This document shows, one piece after another, positions 4,581-41,290 of a stretch of DNA of 57,681 bases. The notes under the pieces are model-generated. The model searched no databases. It saw only the letters and a list, made by a program, of their open reading frames with translations, and was not told where the DNA came from. The position numbers were made by a program, and so were the translations under genes. This DNA comes from Candidatus Woesearchaeota archaeon (GTDB taxonomy: Archaea > Nanobdellota > Nanobdellia > UBA10117 > ARS21). Numbering within the stretch: position 1 is the first letter of the stretch; each line of letters starts with the position of its first letter. The stretch is taken from NCBI GenBank assembly GCA_964615505.1, contig CAZTOR010000001.1, positions 1 through 57,681 on the forward strand, in the 5' to 3' direction.

Positions 4581-6458
4581 ATGAAGCGCGGTTTGTCTAA
4601 TCTTATTGCATTTGTACTTGTAATCTTGATGACTTTGACAGTTGCTACTGCATTTTACTATTGGTTTACTGGAGTGCACTCTGATGCAATGAGTGCTTCT
4701 GAAACTTTTACTGGAGACATACAAAGTCAAGTAATAACTCAATCTACTTCCTTAATTGATCAATATTATAAAACAGATAACGAAAAAAATATGAATAATT
4801 TTGGTGAGATTACTCAAACAATTTGTGCCGAAGATAAAGGGATTAGTTTATCTGAAGATGATATTAGTTTTGAATTATATGAAGGTTATGGATCGAATCA
4901 AGAATTGATTTGCTCAGAATTTGGTGTGGATTGTAAATGTGACCAGTTAAATACAGCCATTGTTGGTGTATTAGGCGGGAATAATACACAAAACGGTATC
5001 ACTTTAATCTCTTCAACAGATGGTGAAAACTGGACTGAAAAAGTAGTAACTACTGATTTTGGAAATTATGATGAATTTGATTTTAGTTCAATCTCTACTT
5101 TTGTGGAAGGTGGGAATAATTGTACTAGCCCAATAAATATAATTTTGCACGGGTCTGCAAGACTTGATGTGGATGGCGGGTTGGGTGAAATTCCTGATAA
5201 TAAACCCAAATATATTGGATTGGTAGTTAACTCCTCTTTAGACGGCGTATCATATGATACAGCAGGAGTCGATTTGGAAAATGTGACTAAATATTTTGAC
5301 ATTACGCAAAGTCCACTTGAATCCGATGATACGTTAGAGCATCTGTTTAAAGGCGGAACTTTATTTTCTCCAACTCTTGGAACAAATCTAGAAGCAATTA
5401 TAACTCATCAGTTTTCGATTTACGATCGTCAAACACGACTTCCGGCTTTTGGAACGAACGGTCGGAGCATTAGTAATAGTGCAGTAACTGCAATTCAAAG
5501 AATTATTAGAAATGGGGAAAATCAATTATTGATTGGAGTTACATTAAATGATTCTAGCGGAGGATCATATATTGATGAAACTATAGACATAGCATCAGGT
5601 ATGGAAAAGAATTATCCGAGTGAATGTCCTTATGAGGTTACTAGTTTTGATGCGTGCGGTTATGATCCAACTCAGGCAGCTGCCTGTACCATTCAAATTG
5701 ACCAAGTTGCAGATATATTTTATGCCGATCAATTTGATGCTATGGTTTCATTAGAAAATTCAAAACCTGTGTTTATAGGTGTGCGTGGAAGGGATAAGGC
5801 AGGAAGAGGAGTAAATTCATTACTATATACCGGATATAATATGACCGAAACTGTAATTTACTGTCTAGATCTTAATGCTTTTGGAGCAGGATATGATTAT
5901 AGATTAAATGTAACAGATATAAAATATTTTGATAATTTGGGTACAGTTGCAGCATTCATAACTAGTGAAGAAGGTATTGCAAAAACTCAAGTTATAATGA
6001 TAAGACAAGAAGGTGAAAATTTGGTGCCTGTTCTGACGGATATACCTACTACTGTTTCCATTAAAACTTTTGCACAAATGGGAGACTATCTTTATGGAGG
6101 CGGTACTGATTACAGTGATGGTTTAATTTTTAGATATAAACTGGATGAAGAAGGCACTATTATAGATATAACGCAAGTTTACCAAAACACAGATTATCTT
6201 GAAGTTCAAAAACTTGAAACCATTAAATATTGTGCTGATCGAAACGTTTACTGTGTGGATGGATGTAACAAAGTCTTGAAAAGAGGTGAATGTTCTGACC
6301 TTACTCTTTCATTAGAAAATTCTGATTGCGATATTTCAAAATACAGTTATGAAACAGATTTTACTTCCAGATTAAATGTAGGTAATGATTTACAAATATT
6401 AAATGTTTTCACTAAAAAACAGAAAAGTAGTAAGGAGATAAACAGTACATTAATATGA
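4581..6458 (+). CDS. giant pilin-like protein (625 aa): class III signal peptide, large globular insert and pilin-type Cys module
   Basis: N-terminus MKRG/LSNLIAFVLVILMTLTVATAFYYWF. The C-terminus (YCADRNVYCVDGCNKVLKRGECSDLTLSLENSDC) repeats the C-x-[SD]GC ... L-x-[IL]-x-L ... C pattern of the three small pilins. The roughly 500 aa between them have no motif I can name. Confidence 0.65.
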   Translation: MKRGLSNLIAFVLVILMTLTVATAFYYWFTGVHSDAMSASETFTGDIQSQVITQSTSLIDQYYKTDNEKNMNNFGEITQTICAEDKGISLSEDDISFELYEGYGSNQELICSEFGVDCKCDQLNTAIVGVLGGNNTQNGITLISSTDGENWTEKVVTTDFGNYDEFDFSSISTFVEGGNNCTSPINIILHGSARLDVDGGLGEIPDNKPKYIGLVVNSSLDGVSYDTAGVDLENVTKYFDITQSPLESDDTLEHLFKGGTLFSPTLGTNLEAIITHQFSIYDRQTRLPAFGTNGRSISNSAVTAIQRIIRNGENQLLIGVTLNDSSGGSYIDETIDIASGMEKNYPSECPYEVTSFDACGYDPTQAAACTIQIDQVADIFYADQFDAMVSLENSKPVFIGVRGRDKAGRGVNSLLYTGYNMTETVIYCLDLNAFGAGYDYRLNVTDIKYFDNLGTVAAFITSEEGIAKTQVIMIRQEGENLVPVLTDIPTTVSIKTFAQMGDYLYGGGTDYSDGLIFRYKLDEEGTIIDITQVYQNTDYLEVQKLETIKYCADRNVYCVDGCNKVLKRGECSDLTLSLENSDCDISKYSYETDFTSRLNVGNDLQILNVFTKKQKSSKEINSTLI

Positions 6459-30804: not shown

Positions 30805-31991
30805 AAAATAAAACTTTGATTTTCTTTTTGGATGCAGTTCGTCCAGATTATATTGGTCGAAATACACCGTTTATGAATTCATTGAAAAAGAGTGGATCAT
30901 TCTTGAAGTTGGATACTTTGCTAGGTTACTCTTCAGGAATATGGCCAAGCATATGGACTTCAACATACCAAGATCAACATAATAAGTTTTTAGTTTATCA
31001 ATACGATCCTGCGGGTTCCAAATTTAAATGGTTTAGTTGGTTTAAATTTATGCCTGCTAAATTGAGACAATATTTTTTTGCAGGTTTGAAAGTCCCATAT
31101 TATTTTATGCCTAAGATCAGGAAATATTTGCCAAAAATATATCATGAAAGATTGTTAGATTTGCCTCCTACCATTAATCCGACTCTAGCAAAATACTTCT
31201 CAGTAGATAAATCTAGCTATAGCGGATATAATTTGATGAAAGATATTGAAAAAAAGTATAGTATAGATTATACGGGCGATCATATCAATCTACCTACTTT
31301 CAAAAAGGCTGCGCCTGTTGAAGAATGGAAATTAAGCAATAACGATATTGATTTCTTCTTCACATACGATACGGACGGATTCGGTCACACATATGGTCCA
31401 AAATCTAAAGAGATTAAAGACTTGATGAATCGAATAGATAAATCCATTAAGCGACTTTATCGAGAAGCAGATAAAAAATATGATGATGTTAATTTATTTA
31501 TATTTTCAGACCACGGTATGTGTGAGGTAAATAAATTTTTAGATGTTCAACAAGAGTTGATTAAATTGCCTTACAAGATGCCCGAAGATTATTTGGCATT
31601 TTTTGATGCGTCTATGGTTCGATTCTGGGTTAAGGACAAAAAGGTGAGAAAGGAAATAATAAAACTGATAAAATCTGTTCCCGAATTAACTTATTTGAGT
31701 GAAAGTTTGAGAGATAAATATGGTTTGAACTTCAAAGATAGAAGATTTGGTGATTTGATGTGTATTGTTGAGCCAGAGACACGAATTTTTCCCGATTATT
31801 TTGCACCAGTTAAATCTGCAATAAAAGGATTGCACGGATACGATCCTAATTTTGAGCATTCAAAGGGAGTATGGTTAAGTAATCATAAATCTAAACGGAA
31901 AAAAATGCATATAATAGATATAATACCGTCTATTGCAGATAAATTGAAAGTTAAACTTAGTAAAAAAGTTCAAGGTAAAACAATATACTAA
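30801..31991 (+). CDS. alkaline-phosphatase-superfamily enzyme (type I phosphodiesterase / nucleotide pyrophosphatase family)
   Basis: Metal-ligand and nucleophile region FFLDAVRPDY ... GYSSGIWPS, plus DTDGFGHTYGP, FSDHGM and GLHGYDP. No TM helices. Confidence 0.7.
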   Translation: MKNKTLIFFLDAVRPDYIGRNTPFMNSLKKSGSFLKLDTLLGYSSGIWPSIWTSTYQDQHNKFLVYQYDPAGSKFKWFSWFKFMPAKLRQYFFAGLKVPYYFMPKIRKYLPKIYHERLLDLPPTINPTLAKYFSVDKSSYSGYNLMKDIEKKYSIDYTGDHINLPTFKKAAPVEEWKLSNNDIDFFFTYDTDGFGHTYGPKSKEIKDLMNRIDKSIKRLYREADKKYDDVNLFIFSDHGMCEVNKFLDVQQELIKLPYKMPEDYLAFFDASMVRFWVKDKKVRKEIIKLIKSVPELTYLSESLRDKYGLNFKDRRFGDLMCIVEPETRIFPDYFAPVKSAIKGLHGYDPNFEHSKGVWLSNHKSKRKKMHIIDIIPSIADKLKVKLSKKVQGKTIY

Positions 31992-32971
31992 TCTTTTCGC
32001 CAAAACCGAGGAGCAGTTTTCCAAGATAAACATATTTCTGAACGTAATTTGGAATATTTTCTTGGATTTGATAAATATTGTTGAGTAAGTAAAATTTCGC
32101 GAACATAGGGGTTTCTGAATGAAAATTTTAATTTATTATTGAATCGGAGATTATTGAAAGTATAGAAAATGATGTTTCCTAGGTTGATGAATAAATTTGG
32201 TTTGATTTTTTTTAATTCATTAATTGCGTCAATATAATTTCTATCGAAATAAATCTCCATTATTTGTTTCCAAGCTAATCTCAAGAAATGGTTTCCGTTG
32301 GAAATTAATTTGGATTTATTTTCTCCAAACGATTTATCCTTATATCTAAAATTGTATGCTTTATTGTGTTCAGAAATAAATCCAGGTATTTTTTTGGCCA
32401 GATTATTGGATATTACTCTATTTGATCGCTTATGATTATCTGCGATATATTCTCCACTGATTAACAATAGTGCTTCACCTATTCCTAGAATTAATTTAGA
32501 ATATTCGTAATCTATATTCCGATTAGAGTGTGCATTTAGAAAAGGTCCCCCTCTGTATGTTAAAATTTGCATTGATTCCCATTTAGGAATTTGGGATATT
32601 TTAGCCTTTTTTCTTAATTTTCCATATAATACTTTTCCAGATGAACTAAATTCAAAGTACATTAAATCTGGTTTTTTGTAAATTTTTGGTGAGAAAATTA
32701 ATAGCTCCACATCTACGGGTAAATTATTAAATAATTTTACGAATTTGTTTCTAATCCAAATAGATTTTAAGGGCGATAATTTTGAAGTTATGCAATAAAA
32801 ATCGATATCTGATCCCTTGTGTGTTGCTTGGCCTCGGGCAGCAGGCCCAGTTATTCCAAAAACCTCAATAAATTTACTTAGATCGGGACTGTTTTTTATA
32901 TCTTTAATAAAGGTATTAGTTCGAGCTAATATTTCCTTCTCCAATTCAGGTCTCTTTTTGTAGAAAAACAT
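31988..32971 (-). CDS. Pol-beta-superfamily nucleotidyltransferase-fold protein with an uncharacterised helical C-terminal domain
   Basis: GITGPAARGQATHKGSDIDFY matches the minimal NTase motif (G[SG]-x9-12-DxD). The track start at 33016 is a TTG, and the first ATG (MFFYKK) is at 32971. It overlaps the convergent 30801-31991 gene by 4 nt. Confidence 0.55.
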   Translation of the reverse strand: MFFYKKRPELEKEILARTNTFIKDIKNSPDLSKFIEVFGITGPAARGQATHKGSDIDFYCITSKLSPLKSIWIRNKFVKLFNNLPVDVELLIFSPKIYKKPDLMYFEFSSSGKVLYGKLRKKAKISQIPKWESMQILTYRGGPFLNAHSNRNIDYEYSKLILGIGEALLLISGEYIADNHKRSNRVISNNLAKKIPGFISEHNKAYNFRYKDKSFGENKSKLISNGNHFLRLAWKQIMEIYFDRNYIDAINELKKIKPNLFINLGNIIFYTFNNLRFNNKLKFSFRNPYVREILLTQQYLSNPRKYSKLRSEICLSWKTAPRFWRKD

Positions 32972-33026
32972 ATTAATTTCTACTATATTTATTTTAAAAA
33001 ACTTAGTAATCAACAAAAAAGCTTAG

Positions 33027-33281
33027 TTACACTATGTCTTCTTCACTAACTATTACAAAATCTCCGGTCGAAATAACTGCTGAAAAAGGTATTAGATGTT
33101 TACTTGATTTGTCTTTCTCTAAATCTAAACCCATGCAATATGCGGTAGGATTCTTTACTGCTAAATAAATTAATTCGCCAGTTCTAGATTCAAAAACCAA
33201 ATCACCGAGCAGTCCAAATTTTTTGCCAGATTTTGATACAACAGTCTTACCTAAAAGGTCGCCAGATTTTGATTTAGTCAT
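33027..33281 (-). CDS. stand-alone PRC-barrel domain protein (84 aa)
   Basis: Shows the PRC-barrel pattern LLGKTVVSKSGKKFGLLGDLVFESRTGELIYLAV ... LIPFSAVISTGDFVIV. Confidence 0.7.
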   Translation of the reverse strand: MTKSKSGDLLGKTVVSKSGKKFGLLGDLVFESRTGELIYLAVKNPTAYCMGLDLEKDKSSKHLIPFSAVISTGDFVIVSEEDIV

Positions 33282-33329
33282 ACGATTTTTAATAAAATTT
33301 GAATTAAATACTTTTCTATACTCTGCGTG

Positions 33330-33791
33330 TCATTCATAACCGAAACTTAGCGACTCACGTTTTTGTTTTTCAACGTAATCGATACCTAATTTAGACAAAA
33401 AATAACGTTTTGGTCTTCCTGGAATTGTAGATATATAGTTTAAATGTTCTAATTCCGCAAGTTTATTTCTAATTGTTCGCTCAGATTTCTGAATATTGTA
33501 TGCAGTTTTTAGTTGTATTGCAGTTACAGCGTAATTTGGTGTTGTTGCTTGCCCTTCGGATAACAGAACGAGTAATTGAAAATCGCTTACTGCAAAATTT
33601 GATGCTAAAGGTTTGGAAATTGGTGTTTTTTGTTTGGAATTTCCATTAATTTCCAGCATCTTCTCTAATAAAAACTGATACTTATTACTTAAGTTAGATA
33701 GATCATTACGAGTTATGCTTAAATCGGACTTAAGTTTCTCGATTTCAGACTTATGAGAATTTAAAATTTTGCGATAATCTATGGAAGACAT
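33330..33791 (-). CDS. coiled-coil and winged-helix (TrmB/MarR-like) putative DNA-binding protein
   Basis: The N-terminal 50 aa or so are coiled-coil-like. The C-terminus has a wHTH pattern (SERTIRNKLAELEHLNYISTIPGRPKRYFLS). ORB-like repeats lie in its upstream region. Confidence 0.55.
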   Translation of the reverse strand: MSSIDYRKILNSHKSEIEKLKSDLSITRNDLSNLSNKYQFLLEKMLEINGNSKQKTPISKPLASNFAVSDFQLLVLLSEGQATTPNYAVTAIQLKTAYNIQKSERTIRNKLAELEHLNYISTIPGRPKRYFLSKLGIDYVEKQKRESLSFGYE

Positions 33792-33840
33792 GAGTTTAAT
33801 ATGTTAAGGTCTAATAAAAGAATTCGTTTTTTCCACCAAA

Positions 33841-33874
33841 TTCCACTATTGACCCCTTTATTTCCGATGGAATT
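33841..33874. repeat. ORB-like 34-bp direct repeat, copy A
   Basis: Sequence ttccactattgacccctttatttccgatggaatt. The reverse complement reads TTCCATCGGAAATAAAGGGG, which is a mini-ORB dyad (TTCCA-n3-GGAAA) followed by a G-string. It matches the elements at 38472-38495 and 38590-38623. Confidence 0.7.
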
Positions 33875-33914
33875 CCTTTAAGTGGGCACATTATCTTATT
33901 TTTTTACCAATAAT

Positions 33915-33948
33915 TTCCAATATTGACCCCTTTATTTCCGATGGAATT
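33915..33948. repeat. ORB-like 34-bp direct repeat, copy B
   Basis: Sequence ttccaatattgacccctttatttccgatggaatt, 33/34 identical to copy A, in the same orientation and 74 bp away. It abuts the stop codon of the Cas4-like gene. Confidence 0.7.
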
Positions 33949-33950
33949 AC

Positions 33951-34643
33951 TTAAATTTCCTTGTCTCTACCGAAACAAATATCTTTGAAATCGCAATAAT
34001 TGCAGATATATGATTCTTCTCTGCTCGGAGGAGTTAGTGTTTTTAAGGACTGTGCTAGTACTGAACCTCTGGCCTCTAAATAATTTAGAGTATTTATTTT
34101 AGGAACTTCGTATGTTTTTATTTTATTTAAGGAAAAATAAACGATACATAATTTTTTAATTTTAGACTGATTTTCAGGTTTCATCATAGAATAATAGGAT
34201 TGTATTTGCATAATGTGTTCTATTTTAGGTTTTTCAGGGATACGTTCAGTCGTTTTGAACTCATACATCACATCATCAGACAATACATCCACGTAACCAA
34301 TTGCATCGAATAATCCGAAATCCTGCGACAAAAATATTTCGTTTTCGTGTTCTTCGAGGTGTTCTTGAAAAAAATTGTGGATTGCATGTCCTCTAGAAAA
34401 AATCCATAATTTATCTAATGAAATAGGTACTTCTTCGATAAGATCATAATATGAGCGTCTTAAACAAGGTCCGGTTAATCTGGTGACTCCGAATCGTGGT
34501 TTCTTATTTGAGTCTCTTTTCTTTCTTTTATCGCGCCCAGCAACAAGTGCTCGGATAACTACGGGTGGGAAGTGCTCATACTCTGCCTCATAAATATCTT
34601 TTACACTTCTTTCTTCACCGTCTGGGCAAATTATTTTAACCAT
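33951..34643 (-). CDS. Cas4-family / RecB-like PD-(D/E)XK nuclease with a 4-Cys (Fe-S) signature, stand-alone
   Basis: One N-terminal Cys (TGPCLRRSYY), SRGHAIH, the D...ExK triad (YVDVLSDDVMYEFK), Q-x3-Y (MQIQSYY) and C-terminal C-x2-C-x5-C (CNYCDFKDIC). Its start overlaps the DP2 stop by 8 nt. Confidence 0.75.
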   Translation of the reverse strand: MVKIICPDGEERSVKDIYEAEYEHFPPVVIRALVAGRDKRKKRDSNKKPRFGVTRLTGPCLRRSYYDLIEEVPISLDKLWIFSRGHAIHNFFQEHLEEHENEIFLSQDFGLFDAIGYVDVLSDDVMYEFKTTERIPEKPKIEHIMQIQSYYSMMKPENQSKIKKLCIVYFSLNKIKTYEVPKINTLNYLEARGSVLAQSLKTLTPPSREESYICNYCDFKDICFGRDKEI

Positions 34644-37600
34644 CCATGAAGCCCCCTAAACCAATTTGCTTGGTTGGTTCTCGTCCGAAAACTGAATCTA
34701 TACGTTTTTCTAGAAGTTTAATCGTATCATGAACATACGGTGATACGCCCTCTACTTCGATCAAATCGAGTGTTTTATCTAAATACTTCTTTATCGAACC
34801 TTCACTAATAGTATATATTACTCTGTCACTTTTACATGCACTACATTTTCCTGAGAGTGGCATCCGTCTAAATTTTTCATTACATTTAACGCACCTAAAT
34901 TTTTGCATAGTAAATTTTCTTAAATTTCCCTTTGTATCTCTGATAAAATGGCCGTTGATAACTAATTCAGCAACTTTTTCTTTATCTACTGCACGTATTT
35001 TGGTTGCCAAATCCATTTGACCTTCTAGTTTTTCATTCATAGTAGGTAGATATTTGTAAGAAGATACTAGTACTCCTTTATTCATATCCGAAACAGGGTG
35101 TGTCCATCCGTGATTTTCATACTGTTCTTTGGAATCAATTGTGTCCTTTATTGATTTTAAAGTTATGTCCCACGGATTTTTGAAATCGAGGGCACCAGTA
35201 TATAACTCCAAAGGTAGATTCCAATCTATATTTAAATCATAGACCTCATCATCCACTTCTTTAGAATTTAATATGGTTGATATTACAAGTGGTGCATCCA
35301 TGCTCCGTGTACCTCTTTGATCAGGCAAGAAATCTCGGGAGAAATTTAAGAATGCTTCAAGAGTTAGCATTATACTTGTTTCTTCACCATCCAAATCTCT
35401 TCGTTGTGCAGCATGCCAATAAGGGTGTGCGAATAATGCTGAAACGTTTGAGAATCCGATTATTCGTCCAATGATTCCTGCAGAAGTGTGTGGTGCAAGT
35501 CCAATTACTAAGTGTCCTATTAAATCGGCTTTTGTTGCGATATTATAAAAAGCATTTTTTTTGTAAAGTGTTGTTAATTCTTCATCGACAAAATGCGCGG
35601 TATTTATCAATATATTTGTTGCAGATTCCGGACCCAAATGCTCGGAATCAGGTATAATTATATCTTGAGGTAGTATCTCCACAATCTGATTTTCATTTAT
35701 TAATTTAGATCCATCTTTGTCAAATAAATATCCTAACTCATGTGCTTTTTTTATAGATAAGCCAATTTCTTTAGGAATAAAGTGTGTTATTCCTAGTTCA
35801 GTTCCATCATATCTAATTGTTCCATCTTTATTTACTCTTAATCCGTACTTTGCACGGATTAAACCTTTGAGTGGGTGTTCGACATATCTATATTTGTTCC
35901 TAGTTGATCGTACGCCCTTTATCAGTGAAGGTATTTCACCAGACCAATTTGAATTTATTTTTTGGAATAGTTTGGAAATTTCATATTTTCGATATTCGTA
36001 GTTTTTGTATTTTCCATGTTTTGGAGGTTCATCCATTTTCCTTTTTGATAAGTTACAAATTACTTGTTGTTTAGTGTTTAGTGAATCGCAGTGTTCACAT
36101 TTTTTGAATATGGTTTGTTTGTTGCAGTCATTGCAATGAATTATAGGTAGTTCAGAAGTAACGTATCCTTTAGTTATTACATCTCTAAAGTTTCTTAGGC
36201 GACCGCCTTCGTTCCCCACAGGAAATAAGAAATTCGGTGAACCTTTTAGGTCTCGCATTTTAGATTTTTCCGGTCGACCCATTCTGGCACCAATTGCAGT
36301 ACCGTTTTTATCTCTGATTTTAAAATTTGAAAGTTCATTTAAGAATTTGAAAGTTTCGTTTGATGTTGGAATATCTATTTTGCTTAGGTTTAAGTTTAAT
36401 TCGAGGTTTTCAAAATCGGAGATTGATATCCGAATTTTATTATTTAGTTGGCTGTGGTTACAGCCGATTATCTCTAAATATTTTTTGGGTTCAGAATTAT
36501 CTAATTCGATATATTCTGAATTTTTATTTCCTGAGTTTAGCCAATCTCTTAGCTTTTTTATTTTATCGATATTCAACTCCTTCCAAAAAAAGGTTAATTC
36601 GGGGTGAAGTGGAATTTTTTCGTTTTTTGAAATAGTGATTAATTTATCCTTAGGTAATTTTTCAGGTATAAATTTTTTAAAAAAAGTATTTGGTAGATTG
36701 TATTTTTTAATGAATTCTTCTTTATTTTGTATTTTTTCCTTTATTTCGAGTAGCCACCATTCAGGACAGTATCCTGCGGGAACCAAAATATGTCCATTTT
36801 CAATAAATTCTCCTGGTGAAATTAAAATATCGCCAAGAAATAAAATCTCTGATATGTTTTGAGAATAGTTTTTTGCCTCTTCTTCAGTTTGTGGAGTTAC
36901 GACTGATCCGTCTTTTAATTTTAAAATTGGTCCATTTATTGAGTCGCAAGATGTTAATGAGGTTGATTTTCCGGGACGCTCCACTCTTAATTGTGTTCCG
37001 ATAGCAAGATAATCATTGAGAACTCGCATAGTTATCGGTGATATTGCCCATGAACCGTGGCCAGTTAACCTAGATCTACCGTATCTTAATCTGAATCCAC
37101 CTTGACGAAGCGGGTGAGTAAATACCGGTCTACCCGCCACAATTTCTGAAATATAATTATAATTTGGTTTTAATTTATTTTCAGCTCCAGTTTCATCTTT
37201 CTTATTTGAATGAATTTTTGATTTTAGTGATATAAATTCTTCTAACCAAATCCAATTTTCTAGACCGAAGTCTCGCCCCCATTCTTTTAATTTTTTCCAA
37301 ACTTTTGTTCCTTTTAATGGTAAACAATCAGTTAACATTAAAGCCATACCTCCACGTATTCGATCTGTTTCTACTCGCGGTAGACCTTTATGATTTGATA
37401 CTGTTAGTTCAGAAGTAGGGTCTCCATTTAATTCAATAGTTAAGTTTGAAATTATGAATTCGATTTCTTTTTCTGTTGGTCTATATTGTTTACGTTCAAC
37501 CCGATCATAATAATCTATGACTTCAGTATGATACCTCTTTATTTCACTAGGTGTTGGATCATATTTGGCGATGTTTTGTTTTATTCTTACATAATCCGCA

Positions 37601-38109
37601 ATTACAGTTGTTACTGCAGAAGCTGTTGCACCACCTCCACGTATAGGTCCCGCATAATACATGGCAAGATAATTTTGACCATCTTTTCTTTTTTTGAATT
37701 TGATATCAATGAGTCCTTCCAATGGAGCCGATACTGTTCCTTGAGTAATGTATGCAAATCCAGTTCTAATTCCGATATTTATTCCTTCAATATTACTTTC
37801 AAATTCGCAAAATTTTTGTTTTGATATTTCTTCAGCTAAAACTAATGCAACTCTCCAATCACCGAAACCGTATGTTTTTTCTAATTCCCCGATTCGTTGT
37901 GAAACTCCGCTTCCAATTAAATTAGGAGATATGGATCCCATAATTGCTTCGACTCTTTCTGCGACAGATGCAGCAATAGGTATGTCTGACTTTAATTGTG
38001 GGTCTATTCCTGTCTTTTTCGAACTATTGGCCAGATTATGGAGATCGAGTGTTTCTGATTTTAGATTTTGAAAATAAGATTGTATTTGTTTAGATGCGAC
38101 AATATCCAT
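34636..38109 (-). CDS. polC: DNA polymerase D (Pol II) large catalytic subunit DP2
   Basis: 1157 aa. DP2-type N-terminus (IQSYFQNL...VAERVEAIMG...VSQRIGELE) and multiple CxxC Zn-finger clusters (CNDCNK..CEHC and CVKCNEK..CSAC). No intein-sized insertion. Confidence 0.95.
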   Translation of the reverse strand: MDIVASKQIQSYFQNLKSETLDLHNLANSSKKTGIDPQLKSDIPIAASVAERVEAIMGSISPNLIGSGVSQRIGELEKTYGFGDWRVALVLAEEISKQKFCEFESNIEGINIGIRTGFAYITQGTVSAPLEGLIDIKFKKRKDGQNYLAMYYAGPIRGGGATASAVTTVIADYVRIKQNIAKYDPTPSEIKRYHTEVIDYYDRVERKQYRPTEKEIEFIISNLTIELNGDPTSELTVSNHKGLPRVETDRIRGGMALMLTDCLPLKGTKVWKKLKEWGRDFGLENWIWLEEFISLKSKIHSNKKDETGAENKLKPNYNYISEIVAGRPVFTHPLRQGGFRLRYGRSRLTGHGSWAISPITMRVLNDYLAIGTQLRVERPGKSTSLTSCDSINGPILKLKDGSVVTPQTEEEAKNYSQNISEILFLGDILISPGEFIENGHILVPAGYCPEWWLLEIKEKIQNKEEFIKKYNLPNTFFKKFIPEKLPKDKLITISKNEKIPLHPELTFFWKELNIDKIKKLRDWLNSGNKNSEYIELDNSEPKKYLEIIGCNHSQLNNKIRISISDFENLELNLNLSKIDIPTSNETFKFLNELSNFKIRDKNGTAIGARMGRPEKSKMRDLKGSPNFLFPVGNEGGRLRNFRDVITKGYVTSELPIIHCNDCNKQTIFKKCEHCDSLNTKQQVICNLSKRKMDEPPKHGKYKNYEYRKYEISKLFQKINSNWSGEIPSLIKGVRSTRNKYRYVEHPLKGLIRAKYGLRVNKDGTIRYDGTELGITHFIPKEIGLSIKKAHELGYLFDKDGSKLINENQIVEILPQDIIIPDSEHLGPESATNILINTAHFVDEELTTLYKKNAFYNIATKADLIGHLVIGLAPHTSAGIIGRIIGFSNVSALFAHPYWHAAQRRDLDGEETSIMLTLEAFLNFSRDFLPDQRGTRSMDAPLVISTILNSKEVDDEVYDLNIDWNLPLELYTGALDFKNPWDITLKSIKDTIDSKEQYENHGWTHPVSDMNKGVLVSSYKYLPTMNEKLEGQMDLATKIRAVDKEKVAELVINGHFIRDTKGNLRKFTMQKFRCVKCNEKFRRMPLSGKCSACKSDRVIYTISEGSIKKYLDKTLDLIEVEGVSPYVHDTIKLLEKRIDSVFGREPTKQIGLGGFMDG

Positions 38110-38160: not shown

Positions 38161-38469
38161 ATGCCTAGAGGTAGACCTGCATTTAGTCCAATTAGAGATA
38201 ATTTGGTAGAATTGATTTTTTACTACGGTAACGGTTATGGTTATGAATTATATAAAAAATATATTGAAGTTTTTCATAAAACAACAATGCGTTCAATATA
38301 TTATCATTTGAATAAAGGCGTTAGTTTAGGTGTTTTTAAAATAGATAAAGTTGAGCAAGTTAAGGGAGATTATAGTTGGGGAACGGGTGTTCGGAGAGTT
38401 GTTTTCTCATTAGGACCTAATGCTAAACCTAAAAAGGATATTAGGGTTCTTAAAAGATTAAAAAAATAG
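38161..38469 (+). CDS. small winged-helix DNA-binding protein (PadR-like), origin-adjacent
   Basis: 102 aa. GNGYGYELYKKY...SIYYHLNKGVSLGVF resembles the PadR-type wHTH (xGYEL ... recognition helix ... wing). Basic C-terminal tail. Confidence 0.5.
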   Translation: MPRGRPAFSPIRDNLVELIFYYGNGYGYELYKKYIEVFHKTTMRSIYYHLNKGVSLGVFKIDKVEQVKGDYSWGTGVRRVVFSLGPNAKPKKDIRVLKRLKK

Positions 38470-38471
38470 AG

Positions 38472-38623
38472 CCATACCCCTACATTTCCACTGTAATAAT
38501 TTAATTTTAAATTCATTTTTTTTCTTTCTTTTCTTTTCTATATTGATAATAAATAATATAAATTATTTTAATAATAATAATAATAAATATTTTCCATCAG
38601 AAATGATAGGGTATAGGGTAAAG
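38472..38623. other. chromosomal replication origin (oriC): inverted ORB elements flanking an AT-rich unwinding element
   Basis: ORB C lies at 38472-38495 (ccatacccctacatttccactgta). ORB D lies at 38590-38623 (ttttccatcagaaatgatagggtatagggtaaag) and is inverted, so both dyads face inward and both G-strings face outward. The 95 bp or so between them are almost pure A/T, with a 24-nt T/C tract (38516-38539) and (AAT)n. The origin sits directly upstream of orc1/cdc6. Confidence 0.75.
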
Positions 38624-38729: not shown

Positions 38730-39935
38730 ATGTCTGATGAATTAGATAGCTTATTCGATAATTTTTTAGAAAAACAATCTGTATTCAATAATAAAGAAGT
38801 TTTATTACTCAGGCATTTCCCAAACAATATACCACATAGATCTAATCAAATAAAGAAACTGGGATTAATTTTAGCACCTGCACTCAGAAACAACAAACCT
38901 TCAAATATTTTTATATATGGTAAAACTGGAACAGGTAAGACTTTATGCACTCAATATACTTTAAATAAATTAAAAGAAAAAGCAAAATTAGCCGGAACTG
39001 ACTTAAATTGCGCATACTTAAATTGTAAATTAAAAAAGGTTGCAGATACAGAATACAGAGTAATTGCAAGTTTAGCAAAAGCATTGGGTGAAAAAGTTCC
39101 AATTACTGGTCTACCTACTGATGAAGTATACAACATTTTCATAAATAAAATAGATGAAAAAGATCAAATCATTATATTAGTATTGGATGAAATCGATAGA
39201 TTAGTTAAGAAAACAGGCGATGAAATTCTATATTCTTTAACTCGCCTAAATGCTGAACTAAAAAATGCCAAATTATGTTTAATTGGAATATCGAACGATG
39301 TTAGATTTATCGAAGATATTGATCCAAGAGTAAAAAGTTCATTAGGTGAGGAAGAAATAATTTTCCCACCATATAATGCTTTGGAATTAAAAGATATACT
39401 TGAAGCCCGTGCAAAAAACGCCTTCTCTGAAGATACAATCGATTCAGCTGTTCTTGCTAAATGCGCAGCATATGCTGCCAAAGAGCACGGAGATGCAAGA
39501 AGAGCACTTGACTTACTACGAGTCGCAGGAGAAGTTGCAGAGCGTGAAGATAGTGAAATAGTATTAATGGAGCATATAAAGTTGGCTGAAGAAAAGATTG
39601 AAATTAATCGAATTTCGGAATTAGTAAAGACTCTACCAACACAATCAAAATTATTAATATATTCAATTTTTCAATTAATTGAAAAAACAAAATCTAAACT
39701 TGAAACTGGAGAAATTTATGAGAAATATAAAGATCTATGTAATATAAATAATACTTCTATTTTAACTCAACGTCGTATATCTGATTTAATTTCCGAATTA
39801 GATATGTTGGGCTTAATCAATGCAAGACTAATTAGTAAAGGTAGGCACGGTAGAACAAGAGAGATTTACTCAACAATACCTAATGATTTGGCAGATAAAT
39901 TAAAGGAAGAAATTAGATACGAATTAATGCTATGA
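38730..39935 (+). CDS. orc1: Orc1/Cdc6 replication initiator
   Basis: AAA+ protein with Walker A GKTGTGKT and Walker B LVLDEID, a DARRALDLLR sensor region and a C-terminal winged helix. 401 aa. Confidence 0.95.
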   Translation: MSDELDSLFDNFLEKQSVFNNKEVLLLRHFPNNIPHRSNQIKKLGLILAPALRNNKPSNIFIYGKTGTGKTLCTQYTLNKLKEKAKLAGTDLNCAYLNCKLKKVADTEYRVIASLAKALGEKVPITGLPTDEVYNIFINKIDEKDQIIILVLDEIDRLVKKTGDEILYSLTRLNAELKNAKLCLIGISNDVRFIEDIDPRVKSSLGEEEIIFPPYNALELKDILEARAKNAFSEDTIDSAVLAKCAAYAAKEHGDARRALDLLRVAGEVAEREDSEIVLMEHIKLAEEKIEINRISELVKTLPTQSKLLIYSIFQLIEKTKSKLETGEIYEKYKDLCNINNTSILTQRRISDLISELDMLGLINARLISKGRHGRTREIYSTIPNDLADKLKEEIRYELML

Positions 39936-41290
39936 ACTCAGAAAAAATAAACGATTTAATAAAAAAAGGAATTTTACCAACTCCTGAAACACTAAATAAA
40001 GAAGTAGTTGTAGTAAAATCTAAAAATAAAGATCTAAAACCAAATTTGAAAGTTGTAAAGGAGTTCGACTACAAACCTAAAAAAGTAGAACCAAAAGATT
40101 TCACCGAACATTATCGAGAGAGATATAAATTCATGAGAAATGTTCTATTTTCTAGACCTGAAGCATCAAACGCAGTATCTATTGAGCGTATTAAATCAGG
40201 ATATTCTCAAGAAGATCAAAGTATAATTGCAATGGTTTCTGATGTAATCCGGCTATCTACAGGAACACTCAAATTGACCGTGGAAGATTTAACTGGACAC
40301 ATAGACTTAATAATATCATCAAAAAATGAAGAATTAATCGAAAAGGCACAATTCTTAACGTTAGATGAAACTTTAATTTTCAAAGGACGTCCGTCCAAAG
40401 ATATTATGTTTGTTTCAGAAATAATTTGGCCAGATATTCCTACAACAACACCAACATATTCTCCTGAAGAAGTATACGCCGTTTTCTCAGGAGACATACA
40501 CGTCGGTTCCAAAAATTTTTTACCCAAACAATTCAAAACATTCATTGATTGGTTTAATGGCAAAGTCGGAAATGATAGACAAAAAGAAATAGCAAACAAA
40601 ACAAAATACTTCTTTATACCCGGAGACTTAGTCGACGGCGTCGGTATTTATCCTTCTCAAGAAAAAGAATTGAACATCAAAGATCTGCGCGAACAATATA
40701 ATGAATTAGCAAAATATATACAACAAATTCCTGATGATAAGGAAATAATAATTTGTCCTGGAAATCACGATACTGCAGTTCGGTTAGAAGAGCCGCAACC
40801 AAAAATGTACGAGTTCGCAGAAGCTTTAAGCGAATTACCAAATGTAACCATGGTTACAAATCCGTCTTACACAAATATACATTCTCAAGATGATTATCAA
40901 GGTCAAGATGTTTTAATGTATCACGGATACTCATTTGATCAACTAATTGATCAAGTAGAAGGACTAAGGGCAGCAGGTGGTTATGAAAAAGCCGAAGAAA
41001 TTCATAAGTTTTTATTGAAACGTAGACATTTATCACCAACACACAATCTAAACTTAACTCTTCCTATGAAAAAAGACCCACACGTAATTGAAAAAATTCC
41101 AGATATAATGGTATCTGGACATATCCACAAGGCCAGAATTGGAAAATACAAAAACACGATAAGCATTTCAGGTAGTTGTTGGCAATCCACAACTGCATTC
41201 CAAGAAAAAGTTGGTCATAAACCTGATCCAGGAATGATTCCTATTTTAAATTTAAAAACCAGAAAAGCAAATATGCTAAGTTTCAAATAA
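39932..41290 (+). CDS. polB: DNA polymerase D small (exonuclease) subunit DP1
   Basis: Calcineurin/Mre11-like phosphoesterase motifs SGDIHVGS, PGDLVDG, PGNHD and SGHIH, preceded by an OB-like region. ATGA overlap with orc1. Confidence 0.9.
   Translation: MNSEKINDLIKKGILPTPETLNKEVVVVKSKNKDLKPNLKVVKEFDYKPKKVEPKDFTEHYRERYKFMRNVLFSRPEASNAVSIERIKSGYSQEDQSIIAMVSDVIRLSTGTLKLTVEDLTGHIDLIISSKNEELIEKAQFLTLDETLIFKGRPSKDIMFVSEIIWPDIPTTTPTYSPEEVYAVFSGDIHVGSKNFLPKQFKTFIDWFNGKVGNDRQKEIANKTKYFFIPGDLVDGVGIYPSQEKELNIKDLREQYNELAKYIQQIPDDKEIIICPGNHDTAVRLEEPQPKMYEFAEALSELPNVTMVTNPSYTNIHSQDDYQGQDVLMYHGYSFDQLIDQVEGLRAAGGYEKAEEIHKFLLKRRHLSPTHNLNLTLPMKKDPHVIEKIPDIMVSGHIHKARIGKYKNTISISGSCWQSTTAFQEKVGHKPDPGMIPILNLKTRKANMLSFK

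Follow-up and report, generated by a model that had tools for sequence, protein, structure and literature searches.

In a 57.7-kb stretch of DNA from an uncultured marine Woesearchaeote (the whole 57,681 nt are called the window throughout), we find two origin recognition boxes (ORBs) outside the replication origin, in the promoter region of a gene for a 153-aa protein that combines a coiled coil with a winged helix-turn-helix (wHTH). The two boxes lie 4.5 kb from the origin (oriC) and 4.8 kb from the initiator gene orc1, and they match the ORB consensus better than the boxes of the origin itself. We consider it probable, from comparison of related and distant archaeal genomes, that they are a satellite pair of high-affinity Orc1 sites in an extended, orc1-linked origin region and that the same pair doubles as the upstream control region of the wHTH gene. 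Beyond what an earlier note on this DNA had described, the analysis presented here brings out a longer repeat unit that includes TGGAA half-sites, the superior consensus match, an outward polarity, and conservation within the clade together with parallels elsewhere among the DPANN archaea.

Results

Two direct repeats with the architecture of origin recognition boxes

The two 34-nt repeats reported earlier, at 33841-33874 and 33915-33948, are confirmed in their coordinates, in their identity (33 of 34 positions) and in the 74 bp between their starts. The repeat is longer than 34 nt, a 55-nt direct unit being present at 33827-33881 and 33901-33955 in copies that are 87% identical, and the intergenic stretch that holds the repeats (33792-33950) runs from the stop codon of a Cas4-like gene to the start of the gene for the 153-aa protein. 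On the minus strand the core of both copies reads TTCCATCGGAAATAAAGGGGT. The proximal ORB (33852..33872) is an exact match scoring 32.1 bits and occupies positions -81 to -61 relative to the ATG of the wHTH gene, while the distal ORB (33926..33946), with the same sequence, lies 74 bp or about seven helical turns farther out at -155 to -135. Both contain the dyad core TTCCA-N2-GGAAA in the form TTCCATCGGAAA, TTCC and GAA being the core motifs by which ORBs have been defined (PMC1904270), and in both the G-string follows with a spacing, GGAAA-YAAA-GGGGT, that is the same as in the orc1-adjacent boxes of 44 loci and in the origin ORBs of the clade itself. The strand orientation of the two ORBs bears out that they are direct and not inverted repeats. 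Scans of the window against Rfam and for tRNA genes gave no match, so that no structured RNA accounts for the repeats.

A scan of the window with the earlier consensus returns four sites only (33852-33872, 33926-33946, 38476-38496 and 38592-38612), with none expected in shuffled sequence, as had been claimed; that scan is circular because the consensus was taken from those same four sites. An independent matrix was built from the orc1-upstream region of the window aligned with five relatives, its weights coming from the origin ORBs alone, those of the window and of four relatives. Run over the window, this origin-only matrix gives the promoter boxes 32.1 bits each, the top scores, above the origin's own ORBs at 28.0 bits (38592-38612, plus strand) and 25.7 bits (38476-38496, minus strand); the next-best site that is not an ORB reaches 9.3 bits, and the best in 20 shuffles 16.7 bits. 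The window thus has four ORBs and no more, with the promoter copies in first place. Since a matrix derived from the origin ranks these boxes first, they belong, as the earlier note had proposed, to the same family as the two elements flanking the AT-rich region beside orc1. In one relative (L013; relatives and reference loci are given by such numbers where they have to be told apart), an origin ORB has a 16-nt stretch, CGGAAACAAAGGGGTA, exactly in common with the promoter boxes.

The same conclusion is reached from genomes far outside the clade. An exact-match search through one genome for each of 185,579 bacterial and archaeal species found the 21-mer TTCCATMGGAAAYAAAGGGGT in 87 reference-genome stretches, 86 of them labelled archaeal, where a chance expectation estimated from the size of the collection is about one stretch. 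An orc1 homolog lies within the same 8-kb block in at least 44 of the 87; the reference loci are fixed 8-kb blocks, and an orc1 missing from a block is therefore not evidence that the gene is absent nearby. Typically the 21-mer is found 20-200 nt upstream of orc1 and oriented toward it, and in 18 cases no more than about 190 nt separate it from the 5' end of the gene to which it points. The lineages include Methanomassiliicoccales, Methanoperedens, Methanosarcinales, Bathyarchaeia, Nitrososphaeria, Poseidoniales, Thermoplasmatota and Geoglobus as well as Woese-, Pace-, Aenigmat-, Parv- and Nanoarchaeota, and the identical 21-mer adjoins orc1 in at least ten archaeal phyla. Taken alone as a marker, the short pattern TTCCANNGGAAA occurs 12 times where 7.5 are expected, which is no significant enrichment; to identify a site, the full 21-nt ORB is needed.

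Motif, matrix and reference-genome matches agree that the boxes are full ORBs with the mini-ORB dyad and G-string architecture, and on these matches we classify them as ORBs of the pan-archaeal Orc1-1 type. The motif is not scattered over unrelated sites: the window has four ORBs, as has each relative for which 17-20 kb are available, and four related reference metagenome-assembled genomes (MAGs) carry the exact 21-mer at this locus only. Taken together, it is very probable that Orc1 binds the two boxes.

The origin beside orc1

The origin itself is canonical, with inverted ORBs whose G-strings point outward and which flank the least stable segment of the window. The left origin ORB, TTACAGTGGAAATGTAGGGGT (38476..38496, minus strand, 25.7 bits), turns its G-string away from the duplex unwinding element (DUE) and has the polarity of the satellite ORBs; the right one, TTCCATCAGAAATGATAGGGT (38592..38612, plus strand, 28.0 bits), is inverted relative to it. 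Between them lies the AT-rich unwinding region of oriC (38497..38591), which includes an invariant block of about 30 nt at about 38531-38560; its part 38510-38589 (92% A+T, z = 3.96) is the 80-bp segment of lowest stability in the entire window. GC skew over the 57 kb tracks the orientation of the genes, gives no position for an origin, and was not used.

The presumed reader of all four ORBs is the Orc1/Cdc6 initiator, an Orc1-1 ortholog, encoded at 38730..39935 on the plus strand (Pfam Cdc6_C and Cdc6_lid). Its best matches among solved structures are Sulfolobus solfataricus Orc1-1 (2QBY_A, 9.5e-105) and Aeropyrum pernix ORC1 (2V1U_A, 1.9e-103), which we take to be the two proteins crystallised on ORB DNA. 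The C-terminal segment aligned to both is highly conserved and is presumably the winged-helix domain that reads the dyad. The next gene (39932-41290, plus strand) is that of DP1.

Two further features of the origin deserve mention. All six aligned origins share, without a change, the block of about 30 nt at 38531-38560 (ATATATTATTTATTATCAATATAGAAAAGAA on the minus strand), whose AT-rich surroundings vary; the block may be bound by a protein within the DUE, and its position is comparable to that of the Sulfolobus ucm element, bound by UBP (PMC12141716). Immediately beside oriC, a basic protein of 102 aa with no family match is encoded at 38161-38469 (plus strand), its stop codon 7 nt before the left origin ORB. 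It occupies the same position in all relatives with 76-93% identity, a conserved placement beside oriC that makes it a candidate origin-associated factor.

Conservation of the boxes within the clade

The closest reference genomes are marine MAGs of Woesearchaeota and Nanoarchaeota (L067, L102, L052, L094), and 24 distinct genomic contexts of the wHTH family were recovered. The order of DP2-Cas4, one or more ORBs and the wHTH gene, with a gene for a PRC-barrel protein nearby, is found in every context that reaches far enough upstream, down to 37-45% identity of the wHTH protein. The layout of each 17-20 kb relative is a left-pointing ORB, the DUE, a right-pointing ORB, 4.55 kb of DP2-Cas4, two right-pointing ORBs and the wHTH gene, and this four-ORB arrangement is common to L001, L004, L007, L013, L052 and L102. 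The satellite boxes and the nearer origin ORB share one polarity, with the dyad toward the origin and the G-string away from it.

Among the nine relatives with the 153-aa protein, mean pairwise identity is 0.96 for the distal ORB, 0.97 for the proximal ORB and 0.98 for the core promoter, that is, the transcription factor B recognition element (BRE) and TATA box. The TGGAA zones are less alike, at 0.88 behind the proximal ORB and 0.74 over the 27 nt behind the distal one; the remaining spacer has 0.58, the leader between TATA box and ATG 0.42, and the four-fold degenerate sites of the wHTH gene 0.54. Both boxes and the BRE/TATA element are under strong purifying selection. An ORB is present on the coding strand upstream of the wHTH gene in all subfamilies, and it is the number and spacing that differ: pairs of boxes with a spacing of 73-75 nt in the closest group, of 83 nt in the group with 48-55% identity and of 38 nt in L094, and in the group with 40-45% identity a single box followed by an array of TGGAAA half-sites and a TTGGAAA-N4-5-TTTCCAA palindrome against the TATA box.

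This footprint bears directly on the notion that the pair arose by a recent tandem duplication and is neutral, or that the similarity is due to chance. Several genomes do have the two units closer to each other than to their orthologs, which hints at gene conversion and might be read as recent duplication, yet both near-invariant cores are retained in lineages whose silent sites are saturated, and the expectation of the motif by chance is about zero. The phylogenetic footprint effectively refutes this explanation, which we regard as extremely improbable. The bases just 3' of GGGGT (33846-33851 and 33920-33925) are often alike between the two copies within a genome and unlike between genomes: both copies read CAATA in the window, CAACA in L001 and L067, and CATTA in L004 and L007. 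The pattern suggests occasional gene conversion between the two repeat units.

A second origin of replication, dormant or decayed to a remnant, is another reading that two full ORBs might invite, some archaea being known to have multiple origins. The boxes, however, are direct and not inverted, and the 53-nt spacer between them and its flanks are of average stability (z of -0.5 to 1.1 against 3.96 at oriC), in agreement with the earlier note, which had argued from the lack of an unwinding element at the repeats against an independent origin. No initiator gene is adjacent, the neighbours being the Cas4-like and wHTH genes, and the space is taken up by the conserved promoter and by flanking coding sequence. 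Together these features argue that the locus is not a second origin, and the strong conservation speaks against a decaying remnant in particular; we hold the idea to be very unlikely.

The composite control region of the wHTH gene

The repeats were placed earlier between the end of the Cas4-like/DP2 operon and the TATA box of the wHTH gene, and this position holds. The promoter is real, judging by the 0.98 identity of its BRE/TATA element and its fixed distance to the ATG. With positions given on the minus strand relative to the ATG at 33791, a BRE-like CGAATTC spans -35 to -29 and the TATA box, TTTTATTA, spans -28 to -21 (together 33812..33826), so that the initiator boxes at -81 to -61 and -155 to -135 lie upstream of a recognisable core promoter at -35 to -21. 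The spacer from TATA box to ATG, about 20-22 nt, is constant in length and not conserved in sequence, which by archaeal promoter geometry implies that the wHTH mRNA is leaderless or nearly so.

Each ORB is followed by half-sites that belong to the 55-nt repeat family. The full proximal unit (33827..33881, minus strand) consists of the ORB and two TGGAA half-sites about 10 nt apart, at 33841-33845 (-54 to -50) and 33831-33835 (-44 to -40), and the full distal unit (33901..33955, minus strand) of the ORB, a TGGAA at 33915-33919 (-128 to -124) and a TGGTA at 33905-33909 (-118 to -114). In 15 distinct upstream sequences the first TGGAA behind each ORB never varies. That the half-sites are part of a longer, general ORB was considered and ruled out, as they are not present after ORBs in other lineages; they are specific to this promoter, and the control region is accordingly composite. 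The extra half-sites suggest a second binder. The spacing of 74 bp between the boxes corresponds to 7.0 helical turns, and that of 83 bp in the sister group to 7.9.

The gene downstream (33330..33791, minus strand) has no Pfam family above threshold, and searches of Pfam and NCBIfam with its 153-aa product gave only sub-threshold helix-turn-helix (HTH) matches. An AlphaFold model (mean pLDDT 77) has an N-terminal coiled coil or long helix at residues 6-48, a disordered linker at 50-66 and a C-terminal winged helix-turn-helix. Among 5.8 billion proteins only 17 homologs were found. A sequence search of the PDB gave weak matches only, to the winged helix of Csa3, and a fold search with the model gave TubR as the best match, followed by MarR, the Csa3 winged helix and AspA, all near 1e-3, generic and too weak for assignment to a family. 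The product is best described as a clade-restricted, predicted DNA-binding protein.

Such a protein could itself be the reader of the boxes, which would then be operators for autoregulation of the wHTH gene, or the 102-aa protein on the oriC side might read both ORB sets instead of Orc1. The predicted product, a DNA-binding dimer with coiled coil and winged helix, would suit the first of these proposals, as would the direct-repeat arrays that are typical targets of proteins like TubR, the top though marginal fold match, and also the conserved TGGAA half-sites and the TTGGAAA-N4-5-TTTCCAA palindromes that abut the TATA box in some subfamilies. Against this, the 21-mer adjoins orc1 in at least ten phyla, whereas the wHTH family is confined to this clade in searches of flanking genes and has its 17 homologs database-wide, and the dyad and G-string architecture is established for Orc1 (PMC1904270, PMC12141716). 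Autoregulation through TGGAA is compatible with the satellite-pair reading that we favour and does not explain the ORB cores. We therefore think it very unlikely that either protein takes the place of Orc1 at the boxes.

Neighbouring genes

Between the origin and the satellite ORBs lies the DP2-Cas4 operon (33951..38109, minus strand), whose end is 5 nt short of the distal ORB. This operon comprises the genes for DP2, the large subunit of DNA polymerase D (PolD; 34636-38109), and for the Cas4-like nuclease (33951-34643), both on the minus strand and identified by Pfam, which overlap by 8 nt (34636-34643). The pairing of this PD-(D/E)XK nuclease gene with the 3' end of the DP2 gene is kept in every relative down to about 60% DP2 identity, so that nuclease and replicative polymerase are stable partners in one operon.

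Beyond the wHTH gene, most relatives of the window have a convergent TctA gene 3' of it. In L001, L004 and L007 the TctA gene and a gene for a 112-aa protein, with a weak OB-fold match in L001-L003, sit between the wHTH gene and that for a 327-aa protein, and both are missing from this interval in the window, L013, L014 and L105-L109 (window 31988-33330 against L001:10453-13299). The PRC-barrel gene (33027-33281) is inverted in the window relative to L001, L004 and L007, which together with the absence of the two genes points to a local deletion plus inversion. A PRC-barrel gene is always near the wHTH locus, and one lies directly beside orc1 in L029, L033, L069 and L085.

Distal ORBs in other archaea

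An ORB of exact consensus is found 1.2-6.2 kb from orc1 in L033, L085, L069, L061, L080 (a pair), L029, L025 and L051, and where origin-proximal ORBs were detected (L033, L061, L069, L080, L085) these have 3-4 mismatches to the consensus. The distal box points away from the origin in all nine lineages, this one included, though not every one of the nine counts as independent, and the polarity may be confounded by the orientation of the genes. In L080 (1781-1923) and L061 (2730-3014), and also in L047 and L023, the satellite ORBs lie between the convergent 3' ends of genes for a TctA-family membrane protein and a family-B DNA polymerase, 3.6-5.1 kb from orc1, the pair in L080 being direct and spaced by 61 nt.

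In 13 genomes of Pace-, Woese- and Nanoarchaeota (L029, L031, L033, L034, L049, L050, L071, L073, L078, L085, L091, L092 and L095) an exact ORB lies inside an open reading frame of 160-280 aa belonging to a single family, as at L031:4900-5748, with the ORB at 5322-5342. Members of this family have an N-terminal coiled coil (F.KVK.DI..L), a low-complexity linker and a C-terminal HTH (Pfam HTH_11, 3e-6), and the embedded ORB translates as S-I-G-N-K-G-V, an island of identity in an otherwise unalignable linker. In L031 a second copy of the ORB, 43 nt upstream, is read in a different frame, and the constraint therefore acts on the DNA. No member of this family is encoded in the window. Homology between it and the 153-aa family was considered and is not significant (hhalign full-length probability 3%; C-terminal domains E = 0.17), so that the two share an architecture only. 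Directly 3' of the intragenic ORBs, the 13 loci have tetranucleotide runs of (CAGA)n, (TCAC)n, (CCAA)n or (TCAT)n, which are rich in C and A on the coding strand and encode 4-aa repeats such as QTDRQTDR (examples are L073, reverse complement of 902-950, and L029:7526-7560); period-4 repeats inside a coding region are unusual.

Other placements were also seen. In three Nano-/Woesearchaeota MAGs (L040, L068, L072) an exact ORB lies 185-195 nt upstream of, and co-oriented with, the gene for the TATA-binding protein (Pfam TBP, 3e-62), another consensus ORB 5' of a gene for a DNA-binding factor. Some genomes have the exact ORB at two to four contigs or loci, among them a Methanofrustulum MAG (L022/L076, L045, L090) and Parvarchaeota MAGs (L020 and L043; L062 and L097), which indicates that extra-origin ORBs or multiple origins of Orc1-1 type are not rare.

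Discussion

The boxes upstream of the wHTH gene suggest that Orc1 acts away from the origin itself, and the question is whether their place in a promoter matters. A purely origin-related satellite, serving as an Orc1 landing, titration or looping site for origin control with its promoter position incidental, is the strongest competing explanation. The distal consensus ORBs in nine lineages, 1.2-6.2 kb from orc1 and all pointing away like the nearer origin ORB, would be accounted for in this way, and so would the ORBs of L080 and L061 between convergent TctA-family and polymerase gene ends and the intragenic ORBs in 13 DPANN loci. The quality of the sites fits as well, since perfect distal boxes beside DUE-flanking boxes with 3-4 mismatches are what one would expect if the distal sites were always occupied and the origin sites filled conditionally, and the dp1 cluster of the Thermococcales, discussed below, provides a precedent. 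On the other hand, the boxes in this clade stay tied to the wHTH promoter despite changes in copy number and spacing; the clade-specific conserved TGGAA sites reach from the boxes to the BRE, resembling a regulatory region; and the shared polarity is possibly confounded by gene orientation. A role confined to the origin is a real but lesser possibility in our estimate.

We favour, with some confidence, the reading in which the satellite pair belongs to the extended origin region and doubles as the control region of the wHTH gene. One Orc1 monomer would bind each box, and with the boxes 74 bp or about seven turns apart the two monomers would share one face of the double helix. As the boxes lie at -81 and -155 relative to the ATG behind a promoter that is probably leaderless, Orc1 occupancy would most likely set transcription of the wHTH gene, with activation or an architectural effect more plausible than occlusion given the upstream position. 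The TGGAA half-sites between the ORBs and the BRE would form a second operator, read either by the wHTH product in autoregulation or by further, weakly bound Orc1. We infer the binding of Orc1, the transcriptional effect and its sign, and the reader of TGGAA.

Several observations weigh against this reading. Uniqueness of the motif beyond the window rests on exact-match scans of incomplete MAGs. RNA evidence for the transcription start was sought, and the search returned only DNA contigs and unrelated metatranscriptomes that share no words with the locus. The distance from the proximal box to the ATG varies by subfamily (81, 69-73 or 122-135 nt), and the variable distance between ORB and TATA box is looser than that of a classical activator site. 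Finally, distal ORBs just as perfect lie, in other DPANN lineages, between convergent genes or inside genes, where no promoter is expected, so that a transcriptional role here may be secondary to an origin-related one. These cases argue for an origin-related role of satellite ORBs in their own right, with the link to a promoter in this clade as an added or co-opted layer. We give roughly an even chance to bound Orc1 modulating the downstream promoter, and a comparable one to the primary role of the boxes being origin-related, whether in holding, titration or looping.

To our knowledge, the dp1 cluster of the Thermococcales is the only documented extra-origin ORB cluster. In Pyrococcus and Thermococcus, Cdc6/Orc1 was found by ChIP-chip (chromatin immunoprecipitation on microarrays) and electrophoretic mobility shift assays at a second ORB cluster (ORB3 and mini-ORBs) inside dp1, 1.5 kb from oriC (PMC1904270). 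This cluster is conserved in the Thermococcales, and in Pyrococcus its affinity is comparable to that of the origin ORBs; Matsunaga et al. (2007, PMC1904270) raised looping and an analogy to the DnaA boxes of Bacillus subtilis and assigned no function. The locus described here resembles it in being an extra cluster of ORB class a few kb from an orc1-adjacent oriC, outside the DUE-flanking pair, near PolD genes and conserved in its clade. It differs in its distance, 4.5 kb and not 1.5 kb, and in being found on the opposite flank of the origin, past DP2-Cas4; it lies between genes and in a promoter, consists of two full consensus ORBs in direct orientation that match the consensus better than the origin ORBs, carries TGGAA half-sites, and its binding is predicted. 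The matrix scan found no ORB-like site above 9.3 bits in dp1 of the window (39932-41290), nor elsewhere in the window beyond the four ORBs.

Comparison with other systems places the boxes between origin elements and regulatory sites. They share with the canonical Orc1-1 ORBs of Sulfolobus oriC1, Aeropyrum and Pyrococcus, which bind one Orc1-1 monomer each with defined polarity (PMC12141716), the TTCC..GGAAA dyad and G-string, the identical 21-mer standing beside orc1 in many phyla; unlike the boxes of a canonical oriC, the two stand 4.5 kb from the origin in direct orientation and flank no unwinding element. As initiator-family sites upstream of a core promoter they recall bacterial DnaA boxes in promoters and the sites of Sulfolobus Orc1-2, a non-initiator paralog that acts as a global regulator of the DNA damage response (PMC9738581), but here the site is a genuine origin box, the window has a single Orc1, and one promoter with no evident regulon is concerned. 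As high-affinity-type initiator boxes clustered outside the origin proper they are also similar to datA and the DnaA-box clusters near B. subtilis oriC, a likeness by analogy only, since the protein family is another and there are just two boxes. A literature search found no published descriptions of ORB layouts in Woesearchaeota or Nanobdellota.

A broader idea, which we advance tentatively and think less likely than the reading for this locus, is that outward-pointing satellite ORBs of perfect consensus, 1-6 kb from orc1, are a general and undescribed part of archaeal origin regions, seen here mostly in DPANN archaea. Such sites would hold or titrate Orc1, the degenerate DUE-flanking ORBs filling only at initiation, and the coiled-coil and HTH proteins found at them (the 153-aa protein and the embedded-ORB family) would be dedicated partners in replication control.

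Whatever the balance between these roles, the locus is a compact and conserved test case, with two consensus boxes of fixed polarity and helical phasing a promoter downstream as a read-out, and an origin 4.5 kb away whose boxes match the consensus less well. If Orc1 binds, two questions become open to test, namely whether an initiator in archaea also serves as a transcription factor and whether the availability of the initiator is buffered by satellite sites, and the locus would offer a first view of origin architecture in DPANN archaea.

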